DNA from: Escherichia phage ECO07P1
Length of the DNA: 64,000 nt
Sequence record: OP172784
Reading direction: 5' to 3' (one strand)
Shown: one piece after another, positions 2,290 to 46,212 of the stretch
Layout: each line of letters opens with the position of its first letter
How positions within the stretch are numbered: the stretch's first letter is position 1
The notes under the pieces: generated by a model
Seen by the model: the letters and a program-made list of their open reading frames with translations, nothing else
Databases searched by the model: none
What the model was told of the DNA's origin: nothing
Position numbers and translations under genes: made by a program

Positions 2290-3753
2290 TTATGCTGGTG
2301 ATAAAAAGGTAGAAAGCAATACCCATTCGCCGTCTTTACGAACGTAAGCTTGGCCATCTTTTGGAGCTTCAGGAATATAACCTGCTTCTTGTAGAGCTTG
2401 AACATCACCTTGCAGAGAAGATATACTGCCTTTGGCTGTATTCACTTCTTGTGTAACTGATGCAATGTTGGTTTCGTTAGCTTTTATTGAATTGGTTAAT
2501 CCACGTTCTTCGACAGTTGAACCGTTTGGATTAGTTCCATTTACTAAAGTATTTAACGCTACAACTTGCCCTTTAATTCCTGTGCTGTTATTACCAATCT
2601 CTACTTGTAGGTTTTGAACATCATTATTCAAGCCTGAAACAGAAGTTTCAATTGTAGAAACTCGGTTTAAAAGAGACCCAGGAGGAGAAGGTTGTCCACC
2701 GCTAGAATCAGTTCCAACAATTTGGTTTAACCATGAAACATTCGCTCTTAAACCGGATGAAGTGTTTTCACCTACAATTCCGTTTAGAGCTTCGATTGAA
2801 GTTGTATTATCTTTAATTTGTCCTTTAATACTCGAAGGAATATCATCTGAACCGATAGAAGTTTCTATAGCGGTTAAACGCTGTTTAATACCTCCACTTT
2901 GATTTAGCTCTAAATTAATAGATGCAATATTATCAGTGTTTGTATTAACACTCGTGATAATCGAATTATTTCCTGGATATCCTATTGAGGTCTTAATAGC
3001 ACTAATGTCAGATTCAAATGTTGTCTGTTTAGTGTCAATTTCATTTAAACGACTATAAACGTTTTGTGAAAATGATGGCGGTTTCGGTCCAAGCTCTTCA
3101 CGAAGATTACCAACTTCAATAGTCAAAGAACCTACATCAGATTCAATAAATTTTGTTTCTAATTCGCTTAAACGTATTCCCTGTGAAGTAATGGCATCAG
3201 TATTATTAATAATGCGATGCTTCATTCCACTACTAGGATTTCCTACAACAGGAAGACCATTAATATCTTGACCTGCGTATTGTCCAAGTTCACGCTTTAT
3301 CCACAGTAAATCATTTCTGATTGTTCTGTATACAGAGTTGGCCTCAGAGTTAAATGGACCAATATCAGCAAGAATACTGTCAACCGTACTATTAGTTCCA
3401 TTTAATATTTCTGTATGTTCACTGGTTAGCGTTTTGAGGTCAGAAATATCCTTTTTATTGATACCTATTTGGGCCAAAGCTTCAATATCACCAGATACAT
3501 CTAAGATGCCCTGAATTGTTTTAATATCACTATTTGCGGTTTCTAAAGATGTTTTAAGTATTCCAATATTTTTATCAAGAACTTCAACATTTCTTAGTAC
3601 AGAAACTGTAGGTCTATTCATTGAACCTTCGCTTCCATACTGCGTGTCAGCTCCTAATATTTCTTCGCCGTTTTTAATCCAGGAAATGCGGCTCTGGCCC
3701 TCTGCAGGAGAGCCGTCAACGAATGGTAAGTCATTCAGTACAATATCTGTCAT
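2290..3753 (-). CDS. wac: fibritin (whisker antigen control)
   Basis: 487 aa; coiled-coil heptads; C-terminal foldon [27 protein letters not shown]. Confidence 0.95.
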
Positions 3754-21379: not shown

Positions 21380-21410
21380 GTTTACACGGGGTTTTAGTTG
21401 TGATACTATT
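21380..21410 (+). promoter_or_regulatory. early promoter (GTTTAC -35, extended -10)
   Basis: tcacaaagttGTTTAC, 17-18 bp spacer, tgTGATACTAT. Confidence 0.6.
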
Positions 21411-21445
21411 ACCCTATCAAAACAAATGAGTGATTGGAGAATAAA

Positions 21446-21718
21446 ATGAAAACATTTAAAGAATTTATCAATGAAGCTGCTTTTAACGAAAAAGTAAAAA
21501 TTAGCAAAGCTGTCAAGACTATGATTGATAACATCAATTACCTATATGGTATTGATTTAACTGACTATGTAACAGTTGGTAACAAACGTAACTATTTCGT
21601 GTTTGACATCTCTGAACTTGACCAGAATCAAATTAACAACATTGAGCGTTTTGCTAATGATAAGGGTCTTCGTCATGAGTCAGCGGGTTATAAAAAATAC
21701 GCAATTTATTTAAAATGA
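21446..21718 (+). CDS. internal protein with N-terminal capsid-targeting sequence (ipI locus, copy 1)
   Basis: N-terminus MKTFKEFINEA resembles the T4 CTS MKTYQEFIAE with L/I-x-E cleavage site; SD ggaga. Confidence 0.7.
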   Translation: MKTFKEFINEAAFNEKVKISKAVKTMIDNINYLYGIDLTDYVTVGNKRNYFVFDISELDQNQINNIERFANDKGLRHESAGYKKYAIYLK

Positions 21719-21750
21719 GTTTACTTTTAAATAGGGTTGTGGTACTATTA
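21719..21750 (+). promoter_or_regulatory. early promoter
   Basis: GTTTAC ... tgTGGTACTAT; -35 overlaps the upstream stop codon. Confidence 0.6.
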
Positions 21751-21778
21751 TCTCATCAAAATTAATTAGGAAAATAAA

Positions 21779-22087
21779 ATGAAAACATTTAAAGAATTTA
21801 TCAATGAAGCGGCTGCACCAAAGACATTCATTATTTATACTCAAGCGGGTCTTGATGATGAGTATGCGGAAGCAATTCTGAGGTCACTTGCTAAGAACGG
21901 TGTTGAAGTAATTGCTTCGGACTTTAAGAAAGGGGCTTCCGAGATGTTTATTTCTATAACTAAAGGATCTAAAGCTAAAATCAAATCATCATTCGGTGTT
22001 GCTCGTACCGATCAAATCGACAATCATGACTTTAAACAAACTGGTGCTAAACGACAGAATACAATTGCATCACGCGGAATAAAATAG
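21779..22087 (+). CDS. internal protein with CTS (ipI locus, copy 2)
   Basis: N-terminus MKTFKEFINEAAAPK; 102 aa. Confidence 0.7.
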   Translation: MKTFKEFINEAAAPKTFIIYTQAGLDDEYAEAILRSLAKNGVEVIASDFKKGASEMFISITKGSKAKIKSSFGVARTDQIDNHDFKQTGAKRQNTIASRGIK

Positions 22088-22099
22088 TTTATAAAAACC

Positions 22100-22130
22100 G
22101 TTTACTTTTAGATAGGGTAGTGATACTATT
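22100..22130 (+). promoter_or_regulatory. early promoter with inverted repeat bracketing the -10
   Basis: GTTTAC ... atagggt-aGTGATACTATT-accctat. Confidence 0.6.
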
Positions 22131-22157
22131 ACCCTATCAACTACTGAGGAGAATAAA

Positions 22158-22382
22158 ATGAAAACATGTAAAAAATTTATTGTAGAAGCTAAAAGACACG
22201 AAGACGAACTGCCTTTTGTTTCAAAAACCTTTGATGGAACATTGGCTGATTTTAAAAAAATTCCTAATGATAAACTTGCTAAATTGGTTGGTTCTATTAG
22301 TGAAAAAGATGGCAAGGTCACATTTTCTGCTCAAGGCGTTGCCAATCTCAAGAAACTTTTGAAAGCCGCTGGTGTTGAATAA
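22158..22382 (+). CDS. small protein with CTS-like N-terminus (ipI locus, copy 3)
   Basis: N-terminus MKTCKKFIVEA; 74 aa; SD gaggag. Confidence 0.6.
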   Translation: MKTCKKFIVEAKRHEDELPFVSKTFDGTLADFKKIPNDKLAKLVGSISEKDGKVTFSAQGVANLKKLLKAAGVE

Positions 22383-22385
22383 ATT

Positions 22386-22416
22386 GTTTACATAGGGTTT
22401 TAGTTGTGATACTATT
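22386..22416 (+). promoter_or_regulatory. early promoter with inverted repeat bracketing the -10
   Basis: GTTTAC ... atagggt ... GTGATACTATT accctat. Confidence 0.6.
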
Positions 22417-22443
22417 ACCCTATCAACTACTGAGGAGAATAAA

Positions 22444-22626
22444 ATGAAACGTTGTGAATTAATTCGAAATGTTGCTATTGCAATTTCTGCTTCTGCTTTT
22501 AGTTTTTCAATGTTTGTTGGATTTATATGCGGATTATTGACTACAGCAGAAAATGTTTTTTCACTTGTAGTAGCATTTTTAATTGGTTTAATTGCTATCG
22601 TTATGGATAAAATTTCTAAAGGTTAA
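22444..22626 (+). CDS. small hydrophobic membrane protein
   Basis: 60 aa, mostly hydrophobic; SD gaggag. Confidence 0.55.
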   Translation: MKRCELIRNVAIAISASAFSFSMFVGFICGLLTTAENVFSLVVAFLIGLIAIVMDKISKG

Positions 22627-23013: not shown

Positions 23014-23086
23014 TGGGAATTAGCCAAGTTGGTAAGGCACTGGATTTTGATTCCAGGATGCAAAGGTTCGAGTCCTTTATTCCCAG
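23014..23086 (+). tRNA. tRNA-Gln (anticodon UUG)
   Basis: Manual cloverleaf: acceptor tgggaat/attccca, anticodon loop ttTTGat, T-loop GTTCGAG. Confidence 0.85.
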
Positions 23087-23087
23087 C

Positions 23088-23174
23088 GCGAGAATGGTCA
23101 AATTGGTAAAGGCACAGCACTTAAAATGCTGCGGAATGATTTCCTTGTGGGTTCGAGTCCCACTTCTCGCACCA
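23088..23174 (+). tRNA. tRNA-Leu (anticodon UAA)
   Basis: Acceptor gcgagaa/ttctcgc, anticodon loop ctTAAaa, long variable arm, encoded CCA. Confidence 0.85.
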
Positions 23175-23179
23175 AATTT

Positions 23180-23253
<74 letters not shown>

Positions 23254-23263
23254 ATTTAATTTA

Positions 23264-23337
23264 CTCCGTGTAGCTCAGTTTGGTAGAGCGTCTGCTTTGG
23301 GAGCAGAATGTCGCAGGTTCAAATCCTGCCGCGGAGA
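23264..23337 (+). tRNA. tRNA-Pro (anticodon UGG)
   Basis: Anticodon stem tctgc/gcaga, loop ttTGGga; T-loop GTTCAAA. Confidence 0.8.
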
Positions 23338-23339
23338 CT

Positions 23340-23429
23340 GGAGGCGTGGCAGAGTGGTTTAATGCACCGGTCTTGAAAACCGGCAGTCGCTCCGGCGACT
23401 CATAGGTTCAAATCCTATCGCCTCCGCCA
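23340..23429 (+). tRNA. tRNA-Ser (anticodon UGA)
   Basis: Acceptor ggaggcg/cgcctcc, loop ctTGAaa, long variable arm, CCA. Confidence 0.85.
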
Positions 23430-23434
23430 GTTTT

Positions 23435-23510
23435 GCTGATTTAGCTTAGTAGGTAGAGCAACTCACTTGTAATGAGAAGGTCGGCGGTTCGATTCCGTCA
23501 ATCAGCACCA
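23435..23510 (+). tRNA. tRNA-Thr (anticodon UGU)
   Basis: Acceptor gctgatt/aatcagc, loop ctTGTaa, T-loop GTTCGAT, CCA. Confidence 0.8.
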
Positions 23511-23511
23511 A

Positions 23512-23586
23512 GGCCCTGTAGCTGGAAGGTTCAAGCAAGCGACTCATAATCGCCAGATGGTGGTTCAATTCCACCCAGGGCCACCA
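23512..23586 (+). tRNA. tRNA with CAU anticodon (Ile2-type or Met; T4 tRNA-Ile has CAU)
   Basis: Acceptor ggccctg/cagggcc, loop ctCATaa, T-arm ggtgg-ttcaatt-ccacc, CCA. Confidence 0.75.
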
Positions 23587-23599
23587 AATTAAGAATTAA

Positions 23600-23686
23600 G
23601 GGGAGTTATCCCGTAGAGGTAGCGGTGTGGACTGTAAATCCATTGTCATTGCGACTCGGGTGGTTCGACTCCATCACTCCCCACCA
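23600..23686 (+). tRNA. tRNA-Tyr (anticodon GUA)
   Basis: Acceptor ggggagt/actcccc, anticodon stem gtgga/tccat, loop ctGTAaa, long variable arm, CCA. Confidence 0.8.
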
Positions 23687-23690
23687 ATTT

Positions 23691-23765
23691 GGATGTGTAG
23701 CTCAATGGCAGAGCGATCGCCTGTTAAGCGATTGGTTATAGGTTCGAATCCTATCACGTCCGCCA
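23691..23765 (+). tRNA. tRNA-Asn (anticodon GUU)
   Basis: Anticodon stem atcgc/gcgat, loop ctGTTaa, T-arm atagg-ttcgaat-cctat, CCA. Confidence 0.8.
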
Positions 23766-23769
23766 AATC

Positions 23770-23845
23770 CGAGGCATAGCTCAGAAGGAAGAGCAAGGAC
23801 CTTCTAAGTCCTAGGTCGTAGGTTCGATCCCTACTGCCTCGACCA
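23770..23845 (+). tRNA. tRNA-Arg (anticodon UCU)
   Basis: Acceptor cgaggca/tgcctcg, anticodon stem aggac/gtcct, loop ctTCTaa, CCA. Confidence 0.85.
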
Positions 23846-24214: not shown

Positions 24215-24553
24215 AACCGGGTCGCTACCGGTAAGTCGTCGGACTGATGTTCCCTGGGTAAGGACTGGCATTAACAAATCTTTACGATTTGTTAATGTCC
24301 CCTTACATCACAGCAGAAACGGCGCACCGAATTATCGATTCGAGGAAATATCTTTGCCGTAAGCCGAGTAGCGTTTTTGACGGAACGTTCGGATATGGTC
24401 GAGATATGGCCTTTTAAAAATATTAAGTAGCGTCAACTGCTTAATAACCGGGTTCGAATCCCGGCGTTTCGTACAAACACTTGCCTTAGCAGGTGGAACC
24501 CCGACAAGGTTGCCGCAAGGCTTAGCCCCGACCGAAAGGTTGGGGCTTTTTAG
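24215..24553 (+). ncRNA. structured noncoding RNA region (position of T4 stable RNA species 1/2, rnaC/rnaD)
   Basis: About 340 nt, GC-richer, no ORF; several hairpins and a tRNA-like T-arm ccggg-ttcgaat-cccgg; ends in a terminator. Confidence 0.45.
24525..24553 (+). terminator. rho-independent terminator
   Basis: gccccgacc-gaaa-ggttggggc followed by TTTTT. Confidence 0.55.
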
Positions 24554-24641: not shown

Positions 24642-25205
24642 ATGAAAACTTATGCCGAATTTTTAACCGAAGCAGCAAAATTACCATCTGAAGCAGAACT
24701 TACTAAAGTATTCTTCCAATTGGACCCAAAAGACCGTGGCGATTTTCTTAAGTGGAAAGCTAAAGCTATTGAAATGTATAACATTGATAATAGTTCTTTT
24801 ACGATGAGTCAAGAAAATAAATTCAATAAAGCATTTTTCAAAATTTCTAAGAAACTGGCATCTGGCGCTCAGGTTCCTAAATCTGCCTTAGCTACTCCTG
24901 AACGTGCGCCTGTTAAAATTTCTAAGAATATGTTCGACACTAAAAAATACGTTAATGCTTTGAATAAAGCTCTTGATGCATTGGATGATGCAAAGAAGGC
25001 AGCCCGTGATCTTCAAGACGTGTACATCGATTTTGATCGTAAAACTAAAGGTTCTATTTCAAATAGCGAACGCAATAGTGTAAGCGTTTATTCTGATAGC
25101 CTTGACGTTCTTGGCGATGCGTATACTGAAATTAAAAATCGTATTAACACCGCATCTAAACTAAAAGCTGCCGCAGAAGCTATAATAGCTAAACTAGATA
25201 AATAA
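24642..25205 (+). CDS. 187-aa protein with capsid-targeting sequence (candidate internal protein)
   Basis: N-terminus MKTYAEFLTEAA (CTS-like); lysine-rich helical remainder. Confidence 0.7.
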   Translation: MKTYAEFLTEAAKLPSEAELTKVFFQLDPKDRGDFLKWKAKAIEMYNIDNSSFTMSQENKFNKAFFKISKKLASGAQVPKSALATPERAPVKISKNMFDTKKYVNALNKALDALDDAKKAARDLQDVYIDFDRKTKGSISNSERNSVSVYSDSLDVLGDAYTEIKNRINTASKLKAAAEAIIAKLDK

Positions 25206-25213
25206 TTTTAAAT

Positions 25214-25238
25214 CCCTATCTAAATGATAGGGCTTTTT
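25214..25238 (+). terminator. rho-independent terminator
   Basis: ccctatc-taaat-gataggg then CTTTTT. Confidence 0.6.
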
Positions 25239-25372
25239 GGTATCTAGGCCTTTCTGGACCTCTCTAAGAATCATTTAGTTTCTACCCTTTATAATATATT
25301 ATCCTATCCTTTAATTGCCCCTCCCTGTCCTAGAATTCCCTAAAACTTTTTAAAAAATTTTTTCACAAAACT

Positions 25373-25403
25373 GTTTACATCCCCGTTCTTCCATGGTACT
25401 ATA
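25373..25403 (+). promoter_or_regulatory. early promoter with A/T UP element
   Basis: aaaaaattttttcacaaaactGTTTACA, 18-bp spacer, tGGTACTAT; cassette recurs at 41757. Confidence 0.6.
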
Positions 25404-25446
25404 CAACTATCAACTACTGATACAGAAAAACAACTTGGAGAATGAA

Positions 25447-25710
25447 ATGGATAATTACGGCGAACTGTTCAACTTCTTTATGAAATGCGTTTCAGAAGAT
25501 TTCGGTCGTACAGTGAATGATATTAAAGTCATCGGTCCTGACCATCCGATGTTTGAAACTTACGCAGTAATGGGTAATGAAGACGGTCAGTGGTATACTG
25601 TAAAAGTTGTGATTAATATGTTCACTGCTGAAGGTTATGTTAAACTGTCTTCTAAAGTTTACCACGATAACGATGAAATCGCAGAAGAATATTTCAATAA
25701 TATGAAATAA
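25447..25710 (+). CDS. hypothetical protein
   Basis: 87 aa from ATG with SD ggag; track ORF extends upstream into the promoter. Confidence 0.6.
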   Translation: MDNYGELFNFFMKCVSEDFGRTVNDIKVIGPDHPMFETYAVMGNEDGQWYTVKVVINMFTAEGYVKLSSKVYHDNDEIAEEYFNNMK

Positions 25711-25778
25711 GTGTGTACAAACACCAAGGATGGTGTTATTATAGACTTATCAAAACAATCACAGAAGCGGAGAAATAA

Positions 25779-28881: not shown

Positions 28882-29684
<803 letters not shown>

Positions 29685-29685
29685 T

Positions 29686-29716
29686 GTTTACTTCCTCCAA
29701 GGACTTTGATACTATA
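29686..29716 (+). promoter_or_regulatory. early promoter for denV
   Basis: GTTTAC, 18 bp, tGATACTAT; SD ggagg then ATG. Confidence 0.6.
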
Positions 29717-29742
29717 CATTCATCAACTACTTGGAGGAAATT

Positions 29743-30156
29743 ATGACTCGTATCAATTTAACACTTGTTTCTGAACTGACCGACCAACATCTTATGGCTG
29801 AGTATCGTGAATTACCACGCGTATTTGGTGCAGTCCGTAAACATGTTCAAAACGGTAAACGTGTAAAGGATTTTAAAATCTCTCCAACATTTATCTTAGG
29901 CACAGGTCACGTAACATTCTTTTACGACAAACTCGAATTTTTACGTTTACGTCAAATCGAGCTAATCGCTGAATGCTTGAAACGTGGTTTCAAAATCAAG
30001 GACACGACTGTCCAGGATATTTCCGACATCCCTGTCGAATTTCGTAATAATTATGTCCCGTCCGAAGCGTCCATTGCGATAAGTCAAGCTCGCTTAGATG
30101 AAAAAATTGCTCAACGCCCTACTTGGTACAAATACTATGGTAAATCAATTTACTAA
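29743..30156 (+). CDS. denV: endonuclease V (pyrimidine dimer DNA glycosylase)
   Basis: 137 aa; [31 protein letters not shown] matches remembered T4 endo V. Confidence 0.95.
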
Positions 30157-30162
30157 GGAAAA

Positions 30163-30421
30163 ATGAAAATGTATCAAGAATTTATCGCTGAAGCAGATGC
30201 CAAAGGCCCCAAATTTAAAGTTAAAGCTTTCGTTGGTGATGCGGAAGACTTTGGCTCATTAAAACGTAATGGGTATTTTTCCTAGGCGGCGATGGTAGAG
30301 AAATAAACACCTATGCAAAACGTAGTGAATTGCTTATGTTGCTGCAAGTCCTAAAGTAGATGTTGACGATATTGGATACGATTTTAACAACTTCGGAATT
30401 ATTTCTGGCGGTGAAGCTTAA
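30163..30421 (+). pseudogene. decayed CTS-type internal-protein gene (frame broken at least twice)
   Basis: ATG with SD aaggaaaa encodes MKMYQEFIAEADAKGPK..., stop after 40 codons; coding-like sequence continues in two other frames. Confidence 0.4.
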
Positions 30422-30424
30422 ACG

Positions 30425-30455
30425 GTTTACGCTTAAGTATTAATATGGTATAATT
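30425..30455 (+). promoter_or_regulatory. early promoter for ipIII
   Basis: GTTTAC, 18 bp, tGGTATAAT. Confidence 0.6.
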
Positions 30456-30484
30456 ACTCTATCAAAACAAACAAGGAAACAAAA

Positions 30485-31063
30485 ATGAAAACGTATAAAG
30501 AATTTATTGCTGAAGCTTCTGTGGAAAAGGCCAAAGGCATTAATAAGGACGAGTGGAACTATCGTGGTGGAAACGGCTTTGACCCTAAAACTGCTCCACT
30601 TGAACGATATCTAGCCACAAAAGCTTCTGACTTTAAAGCTTTCGCTTGGGAAGGACTTCGCTGGCGTACCGATCTAAATATTGAAGTTGATGGGCTTAAA
30701 TTTGGCCATATTCAAGATGTTGTTGCTAGTAACTTGGATGCAGCTTTTGTTAAAGCTGACGGTGACCTTCGTCGCTGGAATTTAAAACTATTCTCTAAAC
30801 AGAAAGGCCCGGTGTTTGTGCCTAAAGCTGGTAAATGGGTTATTGATAATAAATTAGCTAAGGCTGTCAACTACGCTGGTCTTGAATTCGCCAAGCACAA
30901 ATCATCATGGAAAGGTCTGGATGCAATGGCTTTCCGTAAAGAATTTGCTGATGTTATGGCTAAAGGCGGCTTTAAGGCAGAAATAGATACCTCTAAAGGT
31001 ACGTTTAAGGACGCTAATGTTCAGTACGCTTATGCCGTTGCTAACGCAGCCCGTGGTAATTAA
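30485..31063 (+). CDS. ipIII: internal protein III
   Basis: 192 aa; CTS MKTYKEFIAEA; size as T4 IPIII. Confidence 0.8.
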   Translation: MKTYKEFIAEASVEKAKGINKDEWNYRGGNGFDPKTAPLERYLATKASDFKAFAWEGLRWRTDLNIEVDGLKFGHIQDVVASNLDAAFVKADGDLRRWNLKLFSKQKGPVFVPKAGKWVIDNKLAKAVNYAGLEFAKHKSSWKGLDAMAFRKEFADVMAKGGFKAEIDTSKGTFKDANVQYAYAVANAARGN

Positions 31064-31104
31064 TAAGGCCGATACTTAGGCTTATTTACATTTAAAGGAA
31101 ACAT

Positions 31105-31407
31105 ATGAAAACATATCAAGAATTTATTACTGAAGCTCGAGTGAGTGCAGGTAAATTAGAATCCGCTATAAATAAAAAGGCCCATTCATTTCATGATTTG
31201 TCCGATAAAGACCGTAAGAAACTTATAAGCCTTTATATTGACAAAGAGCGTATTCTCGCTCTTCCTGGCGCTAATGAAGGTAAACAGGCCAAGCCTTTGA
31301 ATGCTGTCGAAAAGAAAATTGATAACTTTGCTTCTAAATTCGGTATGTCTATGGATGACCTTCAGCAAGCGGCTATCGAAGCAGCTAAAGTAATTAAAGG
31401 TAAATAA
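31105..31407 (+). CDS. ipII: internal protein II
   Basis: 100 aa; CTS MKTYQEFITEA; size as T4 IPII. Confidence 0.8.
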   Translation: MKTYQEFITEARVSAGKLESAINKKAHSFHDLSDKDRKKLISLYIDKERILALPGANEGKQAKPLNAVEKKIDNFASKFGMSMDDLQQAAIEAAKVIKGK

Positions 31408-37545: not shown

Positions 37546-37576
37546 GTTTACTTTCCATTTGAGCTGTGATACTATA
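37546..37576 (+). promoter_or_regulatory. early promoter
   Basis: GTTTAC, 18 bp, tGTGATACTAT; SD gaggag. Confidence 0.6.
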
Positions 37577-37603
37577 CAACCATCGGATAAAGAGGAGAAC
37601 ATC

Positions 37604-37792
37604 ATGAAAATTGAAGCACTTAATCAAGAAGGAAATATCTACGTCATCATTAATGGTGATTTTTTCGTCGACATGGATGAAGTTACCAGTGAAGAGCTTG
37701 TAGAACTTCTTAAGAAACGTTATGATATGTGTGATGAAGCTGCAACTCATATGGCGTGTGCAATGTTCTCTCTTTCATATGTGGTGGAATAA
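37604..37792 (+). CDS. hypothetical small protein
   Basis: 62 aa from [10 protein letters not shown]. Confidence 0.55.
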
Positions 37793-39080: not shown

Positions 39081-39610
39081 GGAAATATGTGTTTATTTCA
39101 AGTGAAAGCGGTTTAATTCGTGTTGAATTTAAAAATGACATCTTCCTTATTCAAGGAGATGATATTATTAAAATGAGTTATGACGAAATCAAGAAAATTT
39201 GCCGTGCTCTTGAAAGTCATGGAAAAGTAAATGCTACTATCGATATAGGTGATTTATGGGTGACACTTTATGAAGTATCCGAAGGATTTAACATTGAAGA
39301 TGAAAACAACATCTTAGCTATTGATAAAAGAAGTGATTTGTTTGATGTGTTAAAAGTTTATGAACAGTCAAACGGTGGAAGAAAAGCTGCATTGATTTAT
39401 CAAAAACCACATTCATGTGGAACTGCTTCAATCATTTCAAATATTGAAGATGAAACTGATACTTATATGTGTGTTTTAAAGGCTGGCGGTGATCGTCATC
39501 CGGATTTTATTTCTATTCGTCAAAACAATGGAGAAATTTCATTATCAAAATCAGAAGCTGAAGCTATGATTAAGTATTTAACAACTGTTACACCTTCAAT
39601 GAAAGGATAG
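39077..39610 (+). CDS. hypothetical protein, paralog B
   Basis: 177 aa; C-terminus EAEAMIKYLTTVTPSMKG and GFNIEDEN resemble the upstream gene. Confidence 0.6.
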   Translation: MRKYVFISSESGLIRVEFKNDIFLIQGDDIIKMSYDEIKKICRALESHGKVNATIDIGDLWVTLYEVSEGFNIEDENNILAIDKRSDLFDVLKVYEQSNGGRKAALIYQKPHSCGTASIISNIEDETDTYMCVLKAGGDRHPDFISIRQNNGEISLSKSEAEAMIKYLTTVTPSMKG

Positions 39611-39612
39611 TT

Positions 39613-40074
39613 ATGATTATTAATGAAAGCTCTTGGCACTATAAATTATTCAAAATGTTTAATGATGAATGGAAACGACCTAAGACACTGTGCGCGTATT
39701 TTTGGTCTATTGTTATTCCTACATTTTTCGTTTCTTTTTTCGGATGTACTATACTCGCAGGTCTAACTATCATCTGCGCAGAAATTATGCAGAAATGGCT
39801 TATTTTTGGTAGTTTATGGACTCTTATTCCATCAGCATTTATACTTGCCATTTTGCTTGTTTTACTTATTATTGGTTCATTTGTTATTCCTGCACAACTG
39901 CGTGAAAAATATAAAGATTATAAATGGAAAAAGGATTATGCTTTACATGTAGAAAATATTGATAGGGCGTATAAAGGTTTACCTCCTATTCAACCCAAGA
40001 AATCTATTATCGTCGAATTTTTAAAAACGCGTAAAGCTAAAGTATGTCCTGTTATTGAATATAAGGCTGAATGA
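39613..40074 (+). CDS. membrane protein
   Basis: 153 aa; two long hydrophobic segments. Confidence 0.6.
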   Translation: MIINESSWHYKLFKMFNDEWKRPKTLCAYFWSIVIPTFFVSFFGCTILAGLTIICAEIMQKWLIFGSLWTLIPSAFILAILLVLLIIGSFVIPAQLREKYKDYKWKKDYALHVENIDRAYKGLPPIQPKKSIIVEFLKTRKAKVCPVIEYKAE

Positions 40075-41084: not shown

Positions 41085-41086
41085 TA

Positions 41087-41112
41087 GGGAGCCTTCGGGC
41101 TCCCTTTTTTGT
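41087..41112 (+). terminator. rho-independent terminator
   Basis: gggagcc-ttcg-ggctccc then TTTTTT. Confidence 0.65.
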
Positions 41113-41133: not shown

Positions 41134-41164
41134 GTTTACTTCTATCGCAAAGCATATTATAATA
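41134..41164 (+). promoter_or_regulatory. early promoter
   Basis: tcacaaagttGTTTAC, 18 bp, TATAAT. Confidence 0.55.
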
Positions 41165-41209: not shown

Positions 41210-41695
41210 ATGCATATTTTAATGCAATGCCTTGGCAACAAAATTAATGATTTTAATCATAAGCGTGTTAATGATTACATTAAAGACAAACTTGAGATTA
41301 AAGACATACTTTTTAGAGGACTTACAATAGAGGAAGTGCTATCTTATAAGTTTGAAGTTAATAGGAGAATCAAATTTAAAAGAATAACTTCCTTTAGCAG
41401 TGAGTCTCATATAGCTGAAACGTTTGCTGCAGAACGCTATATGACTAATATTTTAGTAGTGTTAAAAAATGCAAACGTTTTTGACTATTCGACTGCTATG
41501 ATTGACATTTTAGAAAATTTAATCGCAATTGAAGAATCTGGCCAAACTGACGATGATAAGCTTAACAAGCTTTATGATAATCTTTGCATGGTAGATTATG
41601 AAAGAGAGTTTTTACTGCCAATTAATTCTGAGTTAATAGTTAAAAACATATATTTTGATAGCAAAAAGAACATGCATATAGTAGAAATGGAATAA
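41210..41695 (+). CDS. hypothetical protein
   Basis: 161 aa; SD gaggag. Confidence 0.6.
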   Translation: MHILMQCLGNKINDFNHKRVNDYIKDKLEIKDILFRGLTIEEVLSYKFEVNRRIKFKRITSFSSESHIAETFAAERYMTNILVVLKNANVFDYSTAMIDILENLIAIEESGQTDDDKLNKLYDNLCMVDYEREFLLPINSELIVKNIYFDSKKNMHIVEME

Positions 41696-41706
41696 ATCAA
41701 CACAAA

Positions 41707-41733
41707 GGGGACCCTAGAGGTCCCCTTTTTATT
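41707..41733 (+). terminator. rho-independent terminator
   Basis: ggggacc-ctaga-ggtcccc then TTTTTATTT. Confidence 0.65.
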
Positions 41734-41756
41734 TCAAAAAATTTTTTCACAAAACG

Positions 41757-41787
41757 GTTTACAAGCATAAAGCTTTATGGTACTATA
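41757..41787 (+). promoter_or_regulatory. early promoter (duplicate of the 25373 cassette)
   Basis: aaaaaattttttcacaaaacgGTTTACA, 18 bp, tGGTACTAT; 34-nt -10/leader identical to 25393-25426. Confidence 0.6.
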
Positions 41788-41823
41788 CAACTATCAACTA
41801 CTGATACAGATTTGGAGAATAAA

Positions 41824-42792
41824 ATGAAAACTGTAACTATCAATAAGGGTATCTACTTCGGTAAAGAAATCTCTGGAACTTTTGAGCTCTTAGGCGAATG
41901 GTTCCCAGATAATGCTCCGGTAGATGCACAAGGAGATGGTAAAGTTTTTGTTGAAATTGACGGTAAACGTCGCGGTGTTTGGGTTTACAAATCAGATATT
42001 TCATATGATGGTGTAAAAGTTGAAGAAGTTAAAGAATCATATGAAGATATGAAAACCCGCATTAATAAAAGATTTAATGTTATGGGAATGATGACGAATG
42101 GTATTATTAATGGAAATATTCGTTCATTAATTATCTCTGGCGCAGCAGGTATTGGTAAAACGTATTCTTTAGATAAAGCTTTAAATAAAGCAAATGATAA
42201 TGGATACATTGAATATAAAAGCATTAATGGTAAAATCTCTGGTATTGGTCTTTATGAGCAGCTTTGGAATAATCGTGAAGAGAACTCTGTCCTTTTGATT
42301 GATGATGTGGATGTTTTCTCTGATATGGACATTCTTAATCTTCTAAAAGCTGCTCTGGACACTGGAGAGACCCGTAAAGTCTGCTGGAGCACTGCATCTT
42401 CTTACTTAGAAGAAAAAGGCATTGACCGTGAGTTTGAATTTAAAGGAACGATTGTTTTTATCACAAACGTTGACATTGACCGCGAATTAGACCGTGGTAC
42501 TAAACTTGCTCCACACTTACAAGCATTGGTGTCCCGCTCAGTTTATTTGGATTTGGGTGTTCACACTAATGAAGAAATTATGGTCAGGGTTGAAGATGTT
42601 ATTCTTTCAACTGACATGATGCAAAAGCGCGGTCTTTCTGATGAAGAAACTTATAAAGCATTATCATGGATGAAAGTCAATGTTAATCGTTTACGCAATG
42701 TTTCACTGCGTACTGCTCTTTATCTTGCTGACTTTATTATGACCGACAAAAACGGTTGGGAAGAAATTGCTGAGGTTACTCTTCTGAAATAA
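41824..42792 (+). CDS. AAA+/P-loop ATPase
   Basis: 322 aa; Walker A GAAGIGKT, Walker B VLLIDDVD. Confidence 0.7.
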   Translation: MKTVTINKGIYFGKEISGTFELLGEWFPDNAPVDAQGDGKVFVEIDGKRRGVWVYKSDISYDGVKVEEVKESYEDMKTRINKRFNVMGMMTNGIINGNIRSLIISGAAGIGKTYSLDKALNKANDNGYIEYKSINGKISGIGLYEQLWNNREENSVLLIDDVDVFSDMDILNLLKAALDTGETRKVCWSTASSYLEEKGIDREFEFKGTIVFITNVDIDRELDRGTKLAPHLQALVSRSVYLDLGVHTNEEIMVRVEDVILSTDMMQKRGLSDEETYKALSWMKVNVNRLRNVSLRTALYLADFIMTDKNGWEEIAEVTLLK

Positions 42793-43198: not shown

Positions 43199-43229
43199 GT
43201 TTACAAGACTGTTCCTCTGTGGTACTATA
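43199..43229 (+). promoter_or_regulatory. early promoter
   Basis: GTTTAC, 18 bp, tGTGGTACTATACAACTATCAACTAC leader; SD ggagg. Confidence 0.6.
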
Positions 43230-43256
43230 CAACTATCAACTACGGAGGAACAGAAA

Positions 43257-43784
43257 ATGAACGCTAAAGATATTTTCAACTTGGTAAATTACAATGATGG
43301 TAAATTTAAATCTGAAGCACAAAGCAAGTTCTTTAACGACATCTCAATCGGAGGTGAAATCACTGTTGATGGAGGACAAATTTACAAATCCCGTTGGAAT
43401 TGGATCGTTATTATTGATGAGATTGGTATTGTAGAAATTTACAAGAATACGAATAAAAATCGTACATTACATTGGTCTCGTGATACTAACGAACAGTACA
43501 AAAAGGATAAAGCATCTAAATTATCTCGTGTAACTCAAGAAGATATTGAGTTTATCAAGAAAGATATTTTAATGTATGATAACTTAATTGCTGAAGAACA
43601 AGCTGTTATTGATAAATTTGATGAGATTAAAGCTTCTCGTGAAATTCCTGATTTTATGAAAGAATCAGTAAATGAACGATACTCTCTCATTTCAGAGCGT
43701 ATTGAAACTTACAAAAAGCAAAGAGCTGAACGCCAAAATACTCTTCGGAAGTTTGAAGAACGGTTAAAGACGGTACTCGCATAA
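43257..43784 (+). CDS. hypothetical protein
   Basis: 175 aa; charged helical C-terminus. Confidence 0.6.
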   Translation: MNAKDIFNLVNYNDGKFKSEAQSKFFNDISIGGEITVDGGQIYKSRWNWIVIIDEIGIVEIYKNTNKNRTLHWSRDTNEQYKKDKASKLSRVTQEDIEFIKKDILMYDNLIAEEQAVIDKFDEIKASREIPDFMKESVNERYSLISERIETYKKQRAERQNTLRKFEERLKTVLA

Positions 43785-45153: not shown

Positions 45154-46182
45154 ATGAAAACTCGTTCTCAAATTGAAGATATGGTTCGTAATGCCAGCTA
45201 TACTCGTGATGTTATGACATTTTTGTGTGAAAATAATTTAGACCCTGATAAAGTTAATCGTGTTATTCATCACTTTAAGTATACGAATAGCAGTGAATGG
45301 GTGCGTAATTTTAGTAAAGCAGGGTATATTACACAAATGACGGCTCGTGAGCAGCTCACCGATTTCTGTAAAACTATTGATTATAAAAATCCTCTATTTG
45401 TTCAAGGCGTTGGTCAAAGTAAGGTCGATTTATCATCTGGATTTTTTAATCCAAATCATTATCGTATTGAATGGAGATTTATTGCTCTGTTCCGTAAACA
45501 ATTAAAGCAAATTTTGTCTACTGCTAGTCGATTAAAAGGCTCTGATATTAACTTAAAGAACCTGAAATTTGATGGTTATACTCTTCAGATGGAAGTAAGA
45601 CCATTAAAAGAAAATAATAGAACTGCACGAATTAGCTTTAAACCTAATACAAAAAATTCTCTTTCAATTTGCGAATGCCTTAAATCACAGTTAACAGAAG
45701 CATTTAAGTATATGGATGTTGTTGCCGCTGTTCAGTCTAAGATTTTACCTCGTTTTGAGCGAAATTGGGAACATACAACAACGTATGAACTTGATATGAT
45801 CGTTTCATTTAAATACGATTTTTTGAGAAAGGACGAAGTCACGCAAGAGAAAAAGCAGGAAGTGCAAGATAACTTAAATTTAAATTTATCCAATTACTCA
45901 TCAAACGATCCTAAATTTTGGATGTATAGTTCAGGTAATAAGGATGCATGGAAATTCAATAAAGTGAATTTTCTTCCTGATGAAAATCCGAGTCTTAAAC
46001 CTGTTGAAAAATGGCATGCTGATGCGATTGAGAAGTCTCTTAAGGCAGTAGATGATGAACTCGTTAAAGCAACTAATGAAGTGTTAGAAGCTGAAAAGAT
46101 GCTAGAAAAAGCTCAAGAAAAAGTCAAAAATCTTACGAAGCAACGTTCTAAACTGAACAATGCACTAAATGCACTAAACTAG
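45154..46182 (+). CDS. hypothetical protein with C-terminal coiled coil
   Basis: 342 aa; C-terminus LEAEKMLEKAQEKVKNLTKQRSKLNNALN. Confidence 0.6.
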   Translation: MKTRSQIEDMVRNASYTRDVMTFLCENNLDPDKVNRVIHHFKYTNSSEWVRNFSKAGYITQMTAREQLTDFCKTIDYKNPLFVQGVGQSKVDLSSGFFNPNHYRIEWRFIALFRKQLKQILSTASRLKGSDINLKNLKFDGYTLQMEVRPLKENNRTARISFKPNTKNSLSICECLKSQLTEAFKYMDVVAAVQSKILPRFERNWEHTTTYELDMIVSFKYDFLRKDEVTQEKKQEVQDNLNLNLSNYSSNDPKFWMYSSGNKDAWKFNKVNFLPDENPSLKPVEKWHADAIEKSLKAVDDELVKATNEVLEAEKMLEKAQEKVKNLTKQRSKLNNALNALN

Positions 46183-46212
46183 TTTACTTTGCCACAAGGA
46201 TGTGGTATAATG
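46182..46212 (+). promoter_or_regulatory. early promoter
   Basis: GTTTAC overlapping upstream stop, 18 bp, tGGTATAAT; SD gaggag. Confidence 0.6.

Follow-up and report, generated by a model that had tools for sequence, protein, structure and literature searches.

The repeated promoter/leader blocks upstream of e.8 and nrdC.10 in Escherichia phage ECO07P1 are, judged by their sequence, the σ70-dependent early promoters, leaders and ribosome-binding sites of these two genes. We consider it probable (about 0.85) that they are cassettes related by descent which act as crossover points for gene modules, as put forward in the promoter-early-stem-loop (PeSL) model. The cassettes are not autonomous mobile elements. 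The window, i.e. the whole stretch of 64,000 nucleotides that was analysed (record OP172784), is a Tequatrovirus (T4-like) genome. Hundreds of records of T4-like coliphages and Shigella phages match it with 93–99% identity, it is collinear with T4 from gene 1 to nrdC.x at 92–96% identity and its + strand corresponds to the early-gene strand of T4.

The early promoters of e.8 and nrdC.10

A 34-mer that comprises the extended −10 region and part of the leader (ATGGTACTATACAACTATCAACTACTGATACAGA) is present without mismatch at 25393-25426 and 41777-41810, and a 28-mer that comprises the UP element and the −35 region (AAAAAATTTTTTCACAAAACNGTTTACA) is found at 25352-25379 and 41736-41763, with one mismatch between the copies. 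For each of them 0 matches were expected from 100 dinucleotide-preserving shuffles. The copies are 16.4 kb apart in direct orientation, and their flanks are mutually unrelated. Both copies reported in the preliminary description are indeed there, but copy 2 starts at 41736 and not at 41738. Likewise, the divergence does sit in the spacer, but of its 17/18 nt just 13 are unlike (25380-25392 versus 41764-41776) and the final ATGG is common to both. The features are:

25352-25372, + strand: copy 1, A/T-rich UP element AAAAAATTTTTTCACAAAACT (from sequence and block match)
25373-25379, + strand: copy 1, −35 GTTTACA with the σ70 hexamer TTTACA at 25374-25379; the T4 orthologue is a minus_35_signal in L13089.1
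25380-25392, + strand: copy 1, 13-nt part of the spacer unlike copy 2 (copy alignment)
25393-25426, + strand: copy 1, 34-nt block identical to copy 2 (exact match)
25394-25396 and 25397-25402, + strand: copy 1, TGn and −10 TACTAT, inside the 34-nt block
near 25409, + strand: copy 1, inferred start, followed by the first ~18 nt of the leader, inside the 34-nt block
25437-25449, + strand: copy 1, Shine-Dalgarno GGAG (25437-25440) and ATG of e.8 (25447)
25447-25710, + strand: e.8, 87 aa, driven by copy 1 (T4 orthology)
41736-41763, + strand: copy 2, UP tract and −35 GTTTACA (41757-41763; block match)
41764-41776, + strand: copy 2, divergent spacer, which together with the next bases holds the 12-nt palindrome ATAAAGCTTTAT
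41777-41810, + strand: copy 2, identical 34-nt block with TGn, −10 TACTAT (41781-41786) and leader (exact match)
near 41793, + strand: copy 2, inferred start, inside the 34-nt block
41814-41826, + strand: copy 2, Shine-Dalgarno GGAG and ATG of nrdC.10 (41824)
41824-42792, + strand: nrdC.10, 322 aa, driven by copy 2 (T4 orthology; weak matches to AAA/STAND NTPases)

The order of elements is the same in each copy: UP tract, −35 GTTTACA, a 17-bp spacer, TGgTACTAT, about 7 nt to the putative start at the A of ATCAA, a leader of 31–38 nt, the Shine-Dalgarno GGAG and the ATG. TTTACA and TACTAT are separated by the 17 bp typical of σ70 promoters (25374-25402 and 41758-41786), a TG precedes the −10 hexamer in both copies and an A/T-rich tract, AAAAAATTTTTTCACAAAAC, is located upstream of the −35 region. 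T4 early promoters have this UP/−35/TGn/−10 architecture, with consensus regions beyond the host elements (PMC2988021). In T4, both promoters precede e.8 and nrdC.10 at orthologous positions, with the same −35 GTTTACA, −10 TACTAT, UP tract and leader. For the T4 orthologue of copy 1, the promoter of msp1 (= e.8), −35 GTTTACA and −10 TACTAT are annotated in GenBank entry L13089.1, and another member of the cassette family is annotated as a promoter in X75802.1. Based on what is known of T4, both promoters should be fired by the host RNA polymerase immediately after infection. The T4 promoter of nrdC.10 differs by small allelic changes, among them the leader CTGATACGGA where the window has CTACTGATACAGA, and in its neighborhood: in the window the promoter adjoins an inserted ORF and a gene-32-type hairpin, whereas that of T4 follows the nrdC.11 terminator.

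Three leaders were folded and were no better folded than their shuffles (z = +1.4, +0.05 and −0.6). Thus, they are plain open leaders and not RNA structures, and a riboswitch or attenuator in the leader is ruled out by folding at shuffle level. GGAG in the Shine-Dalgarno sequence of early genes is, according to the annotation of T4, the cleavage motif of RegB, and RegB may act on these leaders.

A family of mosaic promoter cassettes

The window contains 16 promoters of the type GTTTAC-N18-TAnnAT on the + strand and 0 on the − strand; they are thus co-oriented with early transcription. Their general consensus consists of an A/T-rich upstream tract, GTTTAC, ...TgTGg, TActAT and ...cTATCAa. In an ungapped alignment of all 120 pairs, the promoters of e.8 and nrdC.10 are the most similar pair, with 67 of 92 positions identical compared to a mean of 41.5 (sd 6.9). 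Their spacers, in contrast, are no more alike than the average (7/18 versus a mean of 6.9 among the 120 pairs) and, therefore, the likeness exceeds the general early-promoter consensus, yet is mosaic. The caveat raised at the outset, that the repeats merely reflect the early-promoter consensus, does not hold in view of this similarity and of chimeric cassettes found between genomes.

The preliminary description also listed shorter versions of the leader at 43219, 29706, 22121 and 37568. These were recovered at 43223, 29710, 22124 and 37570: the 21-mer TACTATACAACTATCAACTAC is exact at 43223 and has 3 mismatches at 29710, and related −10/leader blocks are present at 22124 and 37570. The corresponding features are:

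43199-43259, + strand: early promoter and leader of nrdC.8, the third family member; TGGTACTATACAACTATCAACTAC, then directly GGAGG and the ATG (43257)
22100-22160, + strand: early promoter at the IP locus, a more distant member, with leader ATCAACTACTGAGGAG
22386-22446, + strand: early promoter at the IP locus, mosaic of the spacer type of 21380 and the leader of 22100
29686-29745, + strand: early promoter of denV, a shorter member, with leader ATCAACTAC
37546-37607, + strand: early promoter orthologous to the mobD.5 promoter of T4; TACTATACAACCATC

The promoter at 22386 shares its spacer with 21380 (16/18) and the 30-nt region after the −10 with 22100 (30/30). The same kind of sharing is seen in T4. 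There, the 17-mer TACTATACAACTATCAA is present in exact copies upstream of imm.1, e.8, nrdC.10, nrdC.8, ndd.6 and motA, and variants of it precede frd.3, denV, mobD.5 and a site upstream of cef. The T4 promoters of nrdC.10 and frd.3 agree in every base for about 66 nt, also in the spacer, and those of e.8 and imm.1 have most of the spacer in common. Inspection of a handful of T4-like genomes from IMG/VR revealed 5–6 exact copies per genome of the 19-mer GGTACTATACAACTATCAA, upstream of at least 9 different genes. The 91-nt cassette of copy 2 was found at 3727 places in 549 phage records, with 6–9 places per listed Tequatrovirus record. From these sequence matches, the two copies are members of a known multi-copy promoter family and not a two-copy duplication.

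Some spacers carry the motif CCA(C)AAGGA, with a small hairpin possible between −35 and −10 (e.g. CCACAAGGATGTGG); this is seen at 25713-25742, 29686-29715 and 46182-46211 as well as in the ndd.6 promoter of T4. These common spacers, together with the palindrome of copy 2, indicate that the spacers too fall into families.

The promoters of motA, imm.1, ndd.6, e.8, nrdC.10 and frd.3 have in common the UP tract TTTTTTCACAAAAC and the leader AUCAACUACUGAUAC(A/G)GA. It is conceivable, although we regard it as unlikely, that this combination has a function as a signature, beyond being a remnant of common descent. If so, it might define a co-regulated immediate-early subset, for example promoters that are stimulated by Alt-modified RNA polymerase; alternatively, it might mark leaders that RegB/S1 treat in the same way. 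In that case, ectopic gene conversion would actively keep the signature uniform between loci, and between genera as well.

The leader of nrdC.10 exists in two forms. The window and the genome G2133 have CTACTGATACAGA, the type found at e.8 and motA, whereas T4, T2 and two genomes from IMG/VR have CTGATACGGA. The forms differ by a 3-nt indel and one substitution, which are linked. A coupling of the e.8-type leader to the inserted module upstream of nrdC.10 (module X, see below) is ruled out, since T2 combines module X with the T4-type leader. Because the two linked changes reproduce the exact state of a paralogue, the difference is most simply explained by copying of the leader form from another cassette, i.e. 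by gene conversion; with few sequences this is a hint.

Gene modules next to the cassettes

That the flanking genes might be invariant across related genomes had been named as an argument against gene shuffling. Variation was found at both sites: the gap between nrdC.11 and nrdC.10 has at least five states, and both sides of e.8 vary as well. The features of the gap in the window are:

41086-41105, + strand: terminator hairpin of nrdC.11, left edge of the polymorphic site
41134-41163, + strand: early promoter of module X, GTTTAC-N18-TATAAT
41210-41695, + strand: ORF of module X, 161 aa, a short ModA/ModB-like ADP-ribosyltransferase paralogue, absent from T4
41704-41733, + strand: strong terminator hairpin GGGGACCCTAGAGGTCCCC with T-run, directly upstream of copy 2; also follows gene 32 of T4

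T4 and most relatives have nothing in the gap. In the window, in T2, in EP01 and in others it is occupied by module X, consisting of promoter, 161-aa ORF and hairpin. F1, HY03 and others have module Y, which is made up of a 49-aa ORF and a DUF4031 ORF, and Shigella phage A2 has module Z with its 66-aa ORF. AV121 and ACG-C40 contain X and Y in tandem. At least 80% of a query spanning the gap was held by 35 of the 630 matching records, and the sequence of module X itself was found in 43 records. In all five carriers inspected module X is located between nrdC.11 and nrdC.10, and it was not seen at another locus in these.

The joints map to the cassettes. In genomes with module Y, the nrdC.10-type promoter of T4 (spacer AAGCATAAAGCTTTATGG) drives module Y, and the sequences switch just past CTATCAA; in phage F1, the nrdC.10-type promoter is thus in front of a different gene. 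Three different promoters are found ahead of nrdC.10 in different phages, and all of them join at GGAGAATAAAATG, at the Shine-Dalgarno sequence. There are also degraded cassettes in which the hairpin is fused straight to the −10 region. The hairpin at 41704-41728 in the window is stable (−17.1 kcal/mol, z = −3.9) and ends 8 nt ahead of the UP tract of copy 2. The segment after module X (41704-41792), made up of the GGGGACCCTAGAGGTCCCC hairpin and the promoter, is found in T4 as a composite of gene 32 terminator and frd.3 promoter (T4 146,851-146,900), about 90 kb off on the T4 map.

Module X is also present in other genera. It is 93–94% identical in Citrobacter phage Moon (Moonvirus) and Salmonella phage STML-198 (Gelderlandvirus), whereas the flanking genes of these phages are only 67–68% (nrdC.11) and about 76% (nrdC.10) identical to those of the window. 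This difference points to a recent inter-genus transfer of module X. The tract of high identity extends from 41125, in the UP/−35 region of its own promoter, to 41713, in the terminator hairpin. In STML-198, a leader of the family (TACTATACAACTATCAACTGATACGGA...) lies ahead of yet another ORF. The product of the module X ORF is 27% identical to ModA and 30% to ModB of T4 in pairwise BLASTP, and the FRG, SFSS and EREF motifs are in register with those of ModA/ModB. A search of Pfam with module X, the IP-like ORF next to e.8, a 58-aa ORF, e.8 and nrdC.10 gave nothing above the curated cut-offs.

At e.8, an ORF similar to internal proteins (24642-25205) with its own hairpin is inserted between an rnaC-type terminator (24524-24547) and the conserved region upstream of e.8; the e.7 slot downstream of e.8 is replaced compared to T4. 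The hairpin that closes the insertion is:

25214-25242, + strand: terminator-like hairpin and T-run closing the inserted IP-like ORF; T4 homology resumes here

The rnaC-type terminator of T4 is kept at 24524 and T4 sequence resumes at CTTTTTGGTATCTA past the second hairpin, which places the insertion junctions at the T-runs of terminators. The stem at 25214-25232, about 120 nt upstream, is the hairpin nearest to copy 1; none is adjacent. The non-coding stretch of ~120 nt from this hairpin to the UP tract of e.8 (25233-25351) is conserved with T4, and its ends (TCTGGACC ... AGAATTCCCTAAAA) recur without the middle ahead of the imm.1-type promoter, both in T4 and in genomes from IMG/VR.

Further observations concern other parts of the window. 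A leader of the type MKT(F/Y)xEF(I/L)xEA, as known for capsid targeting of internal proteins, opens eight ORFs (starts at 21446, 21779, 22158, 24642, 29403, 30163, 30485 and 31105). Three of these are in the ipI locus; another, with 187 aa, separates e.8 from the tRNA/rnaC region. A further one overlaps the end of gene e, and a 40-aa remnant is located at 30163-30285. denV (29743-30156, 79% identical to T4) is located between e and ipIII, whereas in T4 it comes after ipII and before vs.8; the gene order is changed, and every unit comes with an early promoter of its own. At 23014-23845 the window has ten tRNA genes (Gln, Leu, Gly, Pro, Ser, Thr, Met, Tyr, Asn, Arg), T4 only eight. It lacks segB, a homing endonuclease gene, and is unlike T4 at 39107-40070, the place of mobD in T4. 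Five hairpins of the type GGGCTTCGGCCC with a UUCG loop (26594, 53633, 57011, 61721 and 63668; two 22-mers are identical) are probably intrinsic terminators reused across the genome.

Origin of the likeness and relation to known systems

The best explanation of these data is that the early-promoter cassettes constitute a subfamily related by descent, with 6–9 members per sampled Tequatrovirus genome. Purifying selection on the functional blocks, together with occasional ectopic recombination or gene conversion, would keep the copies nearly identical but mosaic. As co-oriented homologies of about 70–100 bp that adjoin terminator hairpins, the cassettes would serve as crossover points, at which modules of promoter, ORF and terminator would be inserted, deleted or replaced. 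Both promoters keep their loci in the genomes inspected (8 at e.8, 6 at nrdC.10). Hence, it would be the ORF modules lying between cassettes that move, while the cassettes stay in place. Compared to T4, about 8–9 of 20 breakpoint ends in the window fall in cassette-bearing junctions, compared to about a quarter of the junctions that have a cassette. This excess is modest; the tally is small and, since indels of whole genes are viable only with breaks in intergenic DNA, by whichever mechanism they arise, it is confounded and not a proof.

What counts against this explanation is that the blocks identical between the copies are functional elements, while the spacer is at background similarity, so that selection alone could maintain much of the identity. 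Indeed, the identical blocks coincide with the UP element, −35, TGn/−10 and start region, the same blocks are conserved in the e.8 orthologues and an extended consensus is known among the early promoters of T4 (PMC2988021). Convergent or purifying selection for one optimal promoter and leader, with no role for recombination and with the gene variation a coincidence, is nevertheless improbable in our view. The general consensus fades past CTATCAA, yet 17 more bases of the leader are identical. Spacer families are reused at unrelated loci, as in the T4 promoters of nrdC.10 and frd.3, and the chimeric promoter/leader joins as well as the module boundaries map inside the cassettes.

Two blocks of 28 nt (one mismatch) and 34 nt in direct orientation could also have arisen by a recent segmental duplication within the genome of ECO07P1 itself. 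Here, T4 is decisive. It has the same pair at the same loci, and so do the further Tequatrovirus genomes inspected. This makes the pair old and rules out a recent duplication, which is negligible also because spacers and flanks are unrelated between the copies. Very unlikely, if slightly less so, is a mobile element that transposes as a unit, be it autonomous, non-autonomous and MITE-like, or linked to a homing endonuclease as its target or passenger. In favor of it, the cassettes are dispersed in many copies, and the homing endonuclease genes nearby differ from T4, with segB and mobD absent. However, a scan for inverted repeats gave only terminator hairpins and A/T-rich pairs and no terminal inverted repeats that bound the copies, target-site duplications were not seen by eye at the two copies, the + strand holds each of the 16 strong copies of the window and every inspected genome that carries the two copies has them at the same, orthologous sites. 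A transposon or MITE was rejected on these grounds. We therefore prefer descent-related cassettes as crossover points.

The PeSL concept was first formulated for RB49/phi1 (Arbiol et al. 2010, PMC2839356) and later carried over to the pair T4/PST, where the consensus is TTTACW-N17-TAYWAT (Comeau et al. 2014, PMC4122927); its authors trace it back to the IP loci studied by Repoila et al. 1994 (PMC2839356, PMC4122927). The cassettes of the window resemble PeSLs in being composites of hairpin, A/T tract, −35/−10 of this consensus, Shine-Dalgarno sequence and ATG, conserved over about 100 bp. They are multi-copy, intergenic and located in plastic regions, beside indels and replacements between close relatives, with crossovers between hairpin, A/T tract, −10 and Shine-Dalgarno sequence. 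The adjacent stem-loop is seen only at copy 2 (8 nt upstream), whereas the nearest hairpin of copy 1 is ~120 nt away. Furthermore, the T-even versions are built on the T4-specific GTTTAC consensus, those of RB49/phi1 on a near-perfect TTGACA/TATAAT. Excised mini-circles during infection, the only experimental hallmark of PeSLs, belong to the published system (PMC2839356). The PeSL reading offered in the preliminary description is thus borne out as far as variable flanking genes and chimeric cassettes are concerned, but has to be modified in two respects: the duplication is one within a family of 6–9, and the cassette itself is positionally stable.

The promoter/leader elements at the IP loci of T-even phages described by Repoila et al. 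1994 are matched by the IP loci of the window (21380-22450 and 29400-31400), where like cassettes with mosaic spacers and leaders are each followed by the repeated capsid-targeting leader MKT(F/Y)xEF. Copies 1 and 2 differ in that they drive the non-IP genes e.8 and nrdC.10. Module X also resembles the morons of lambdoid phages in being a self-contained unit of promoter, ORF and terminator between two genes. Conserved flanking regulatory repeats are not thought to be used in moron insertion (PMC2839356), whereas module X ends in shared cassette sequence.

The promoters as well as the principle of exchange are already in the literature, and the phenomenon is a known one. T4-like phages keep a conserved backbone and swap small accessory genes, and this one window shows how: nearly identical promoter/terminator cassettes would provide the short homologies for the exchange of self-expressing gene modules. 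A ModA/ModB-like ADP-ribosyltransferase module shared between genera is a well-resolved example, a confirmation and not a discovery.
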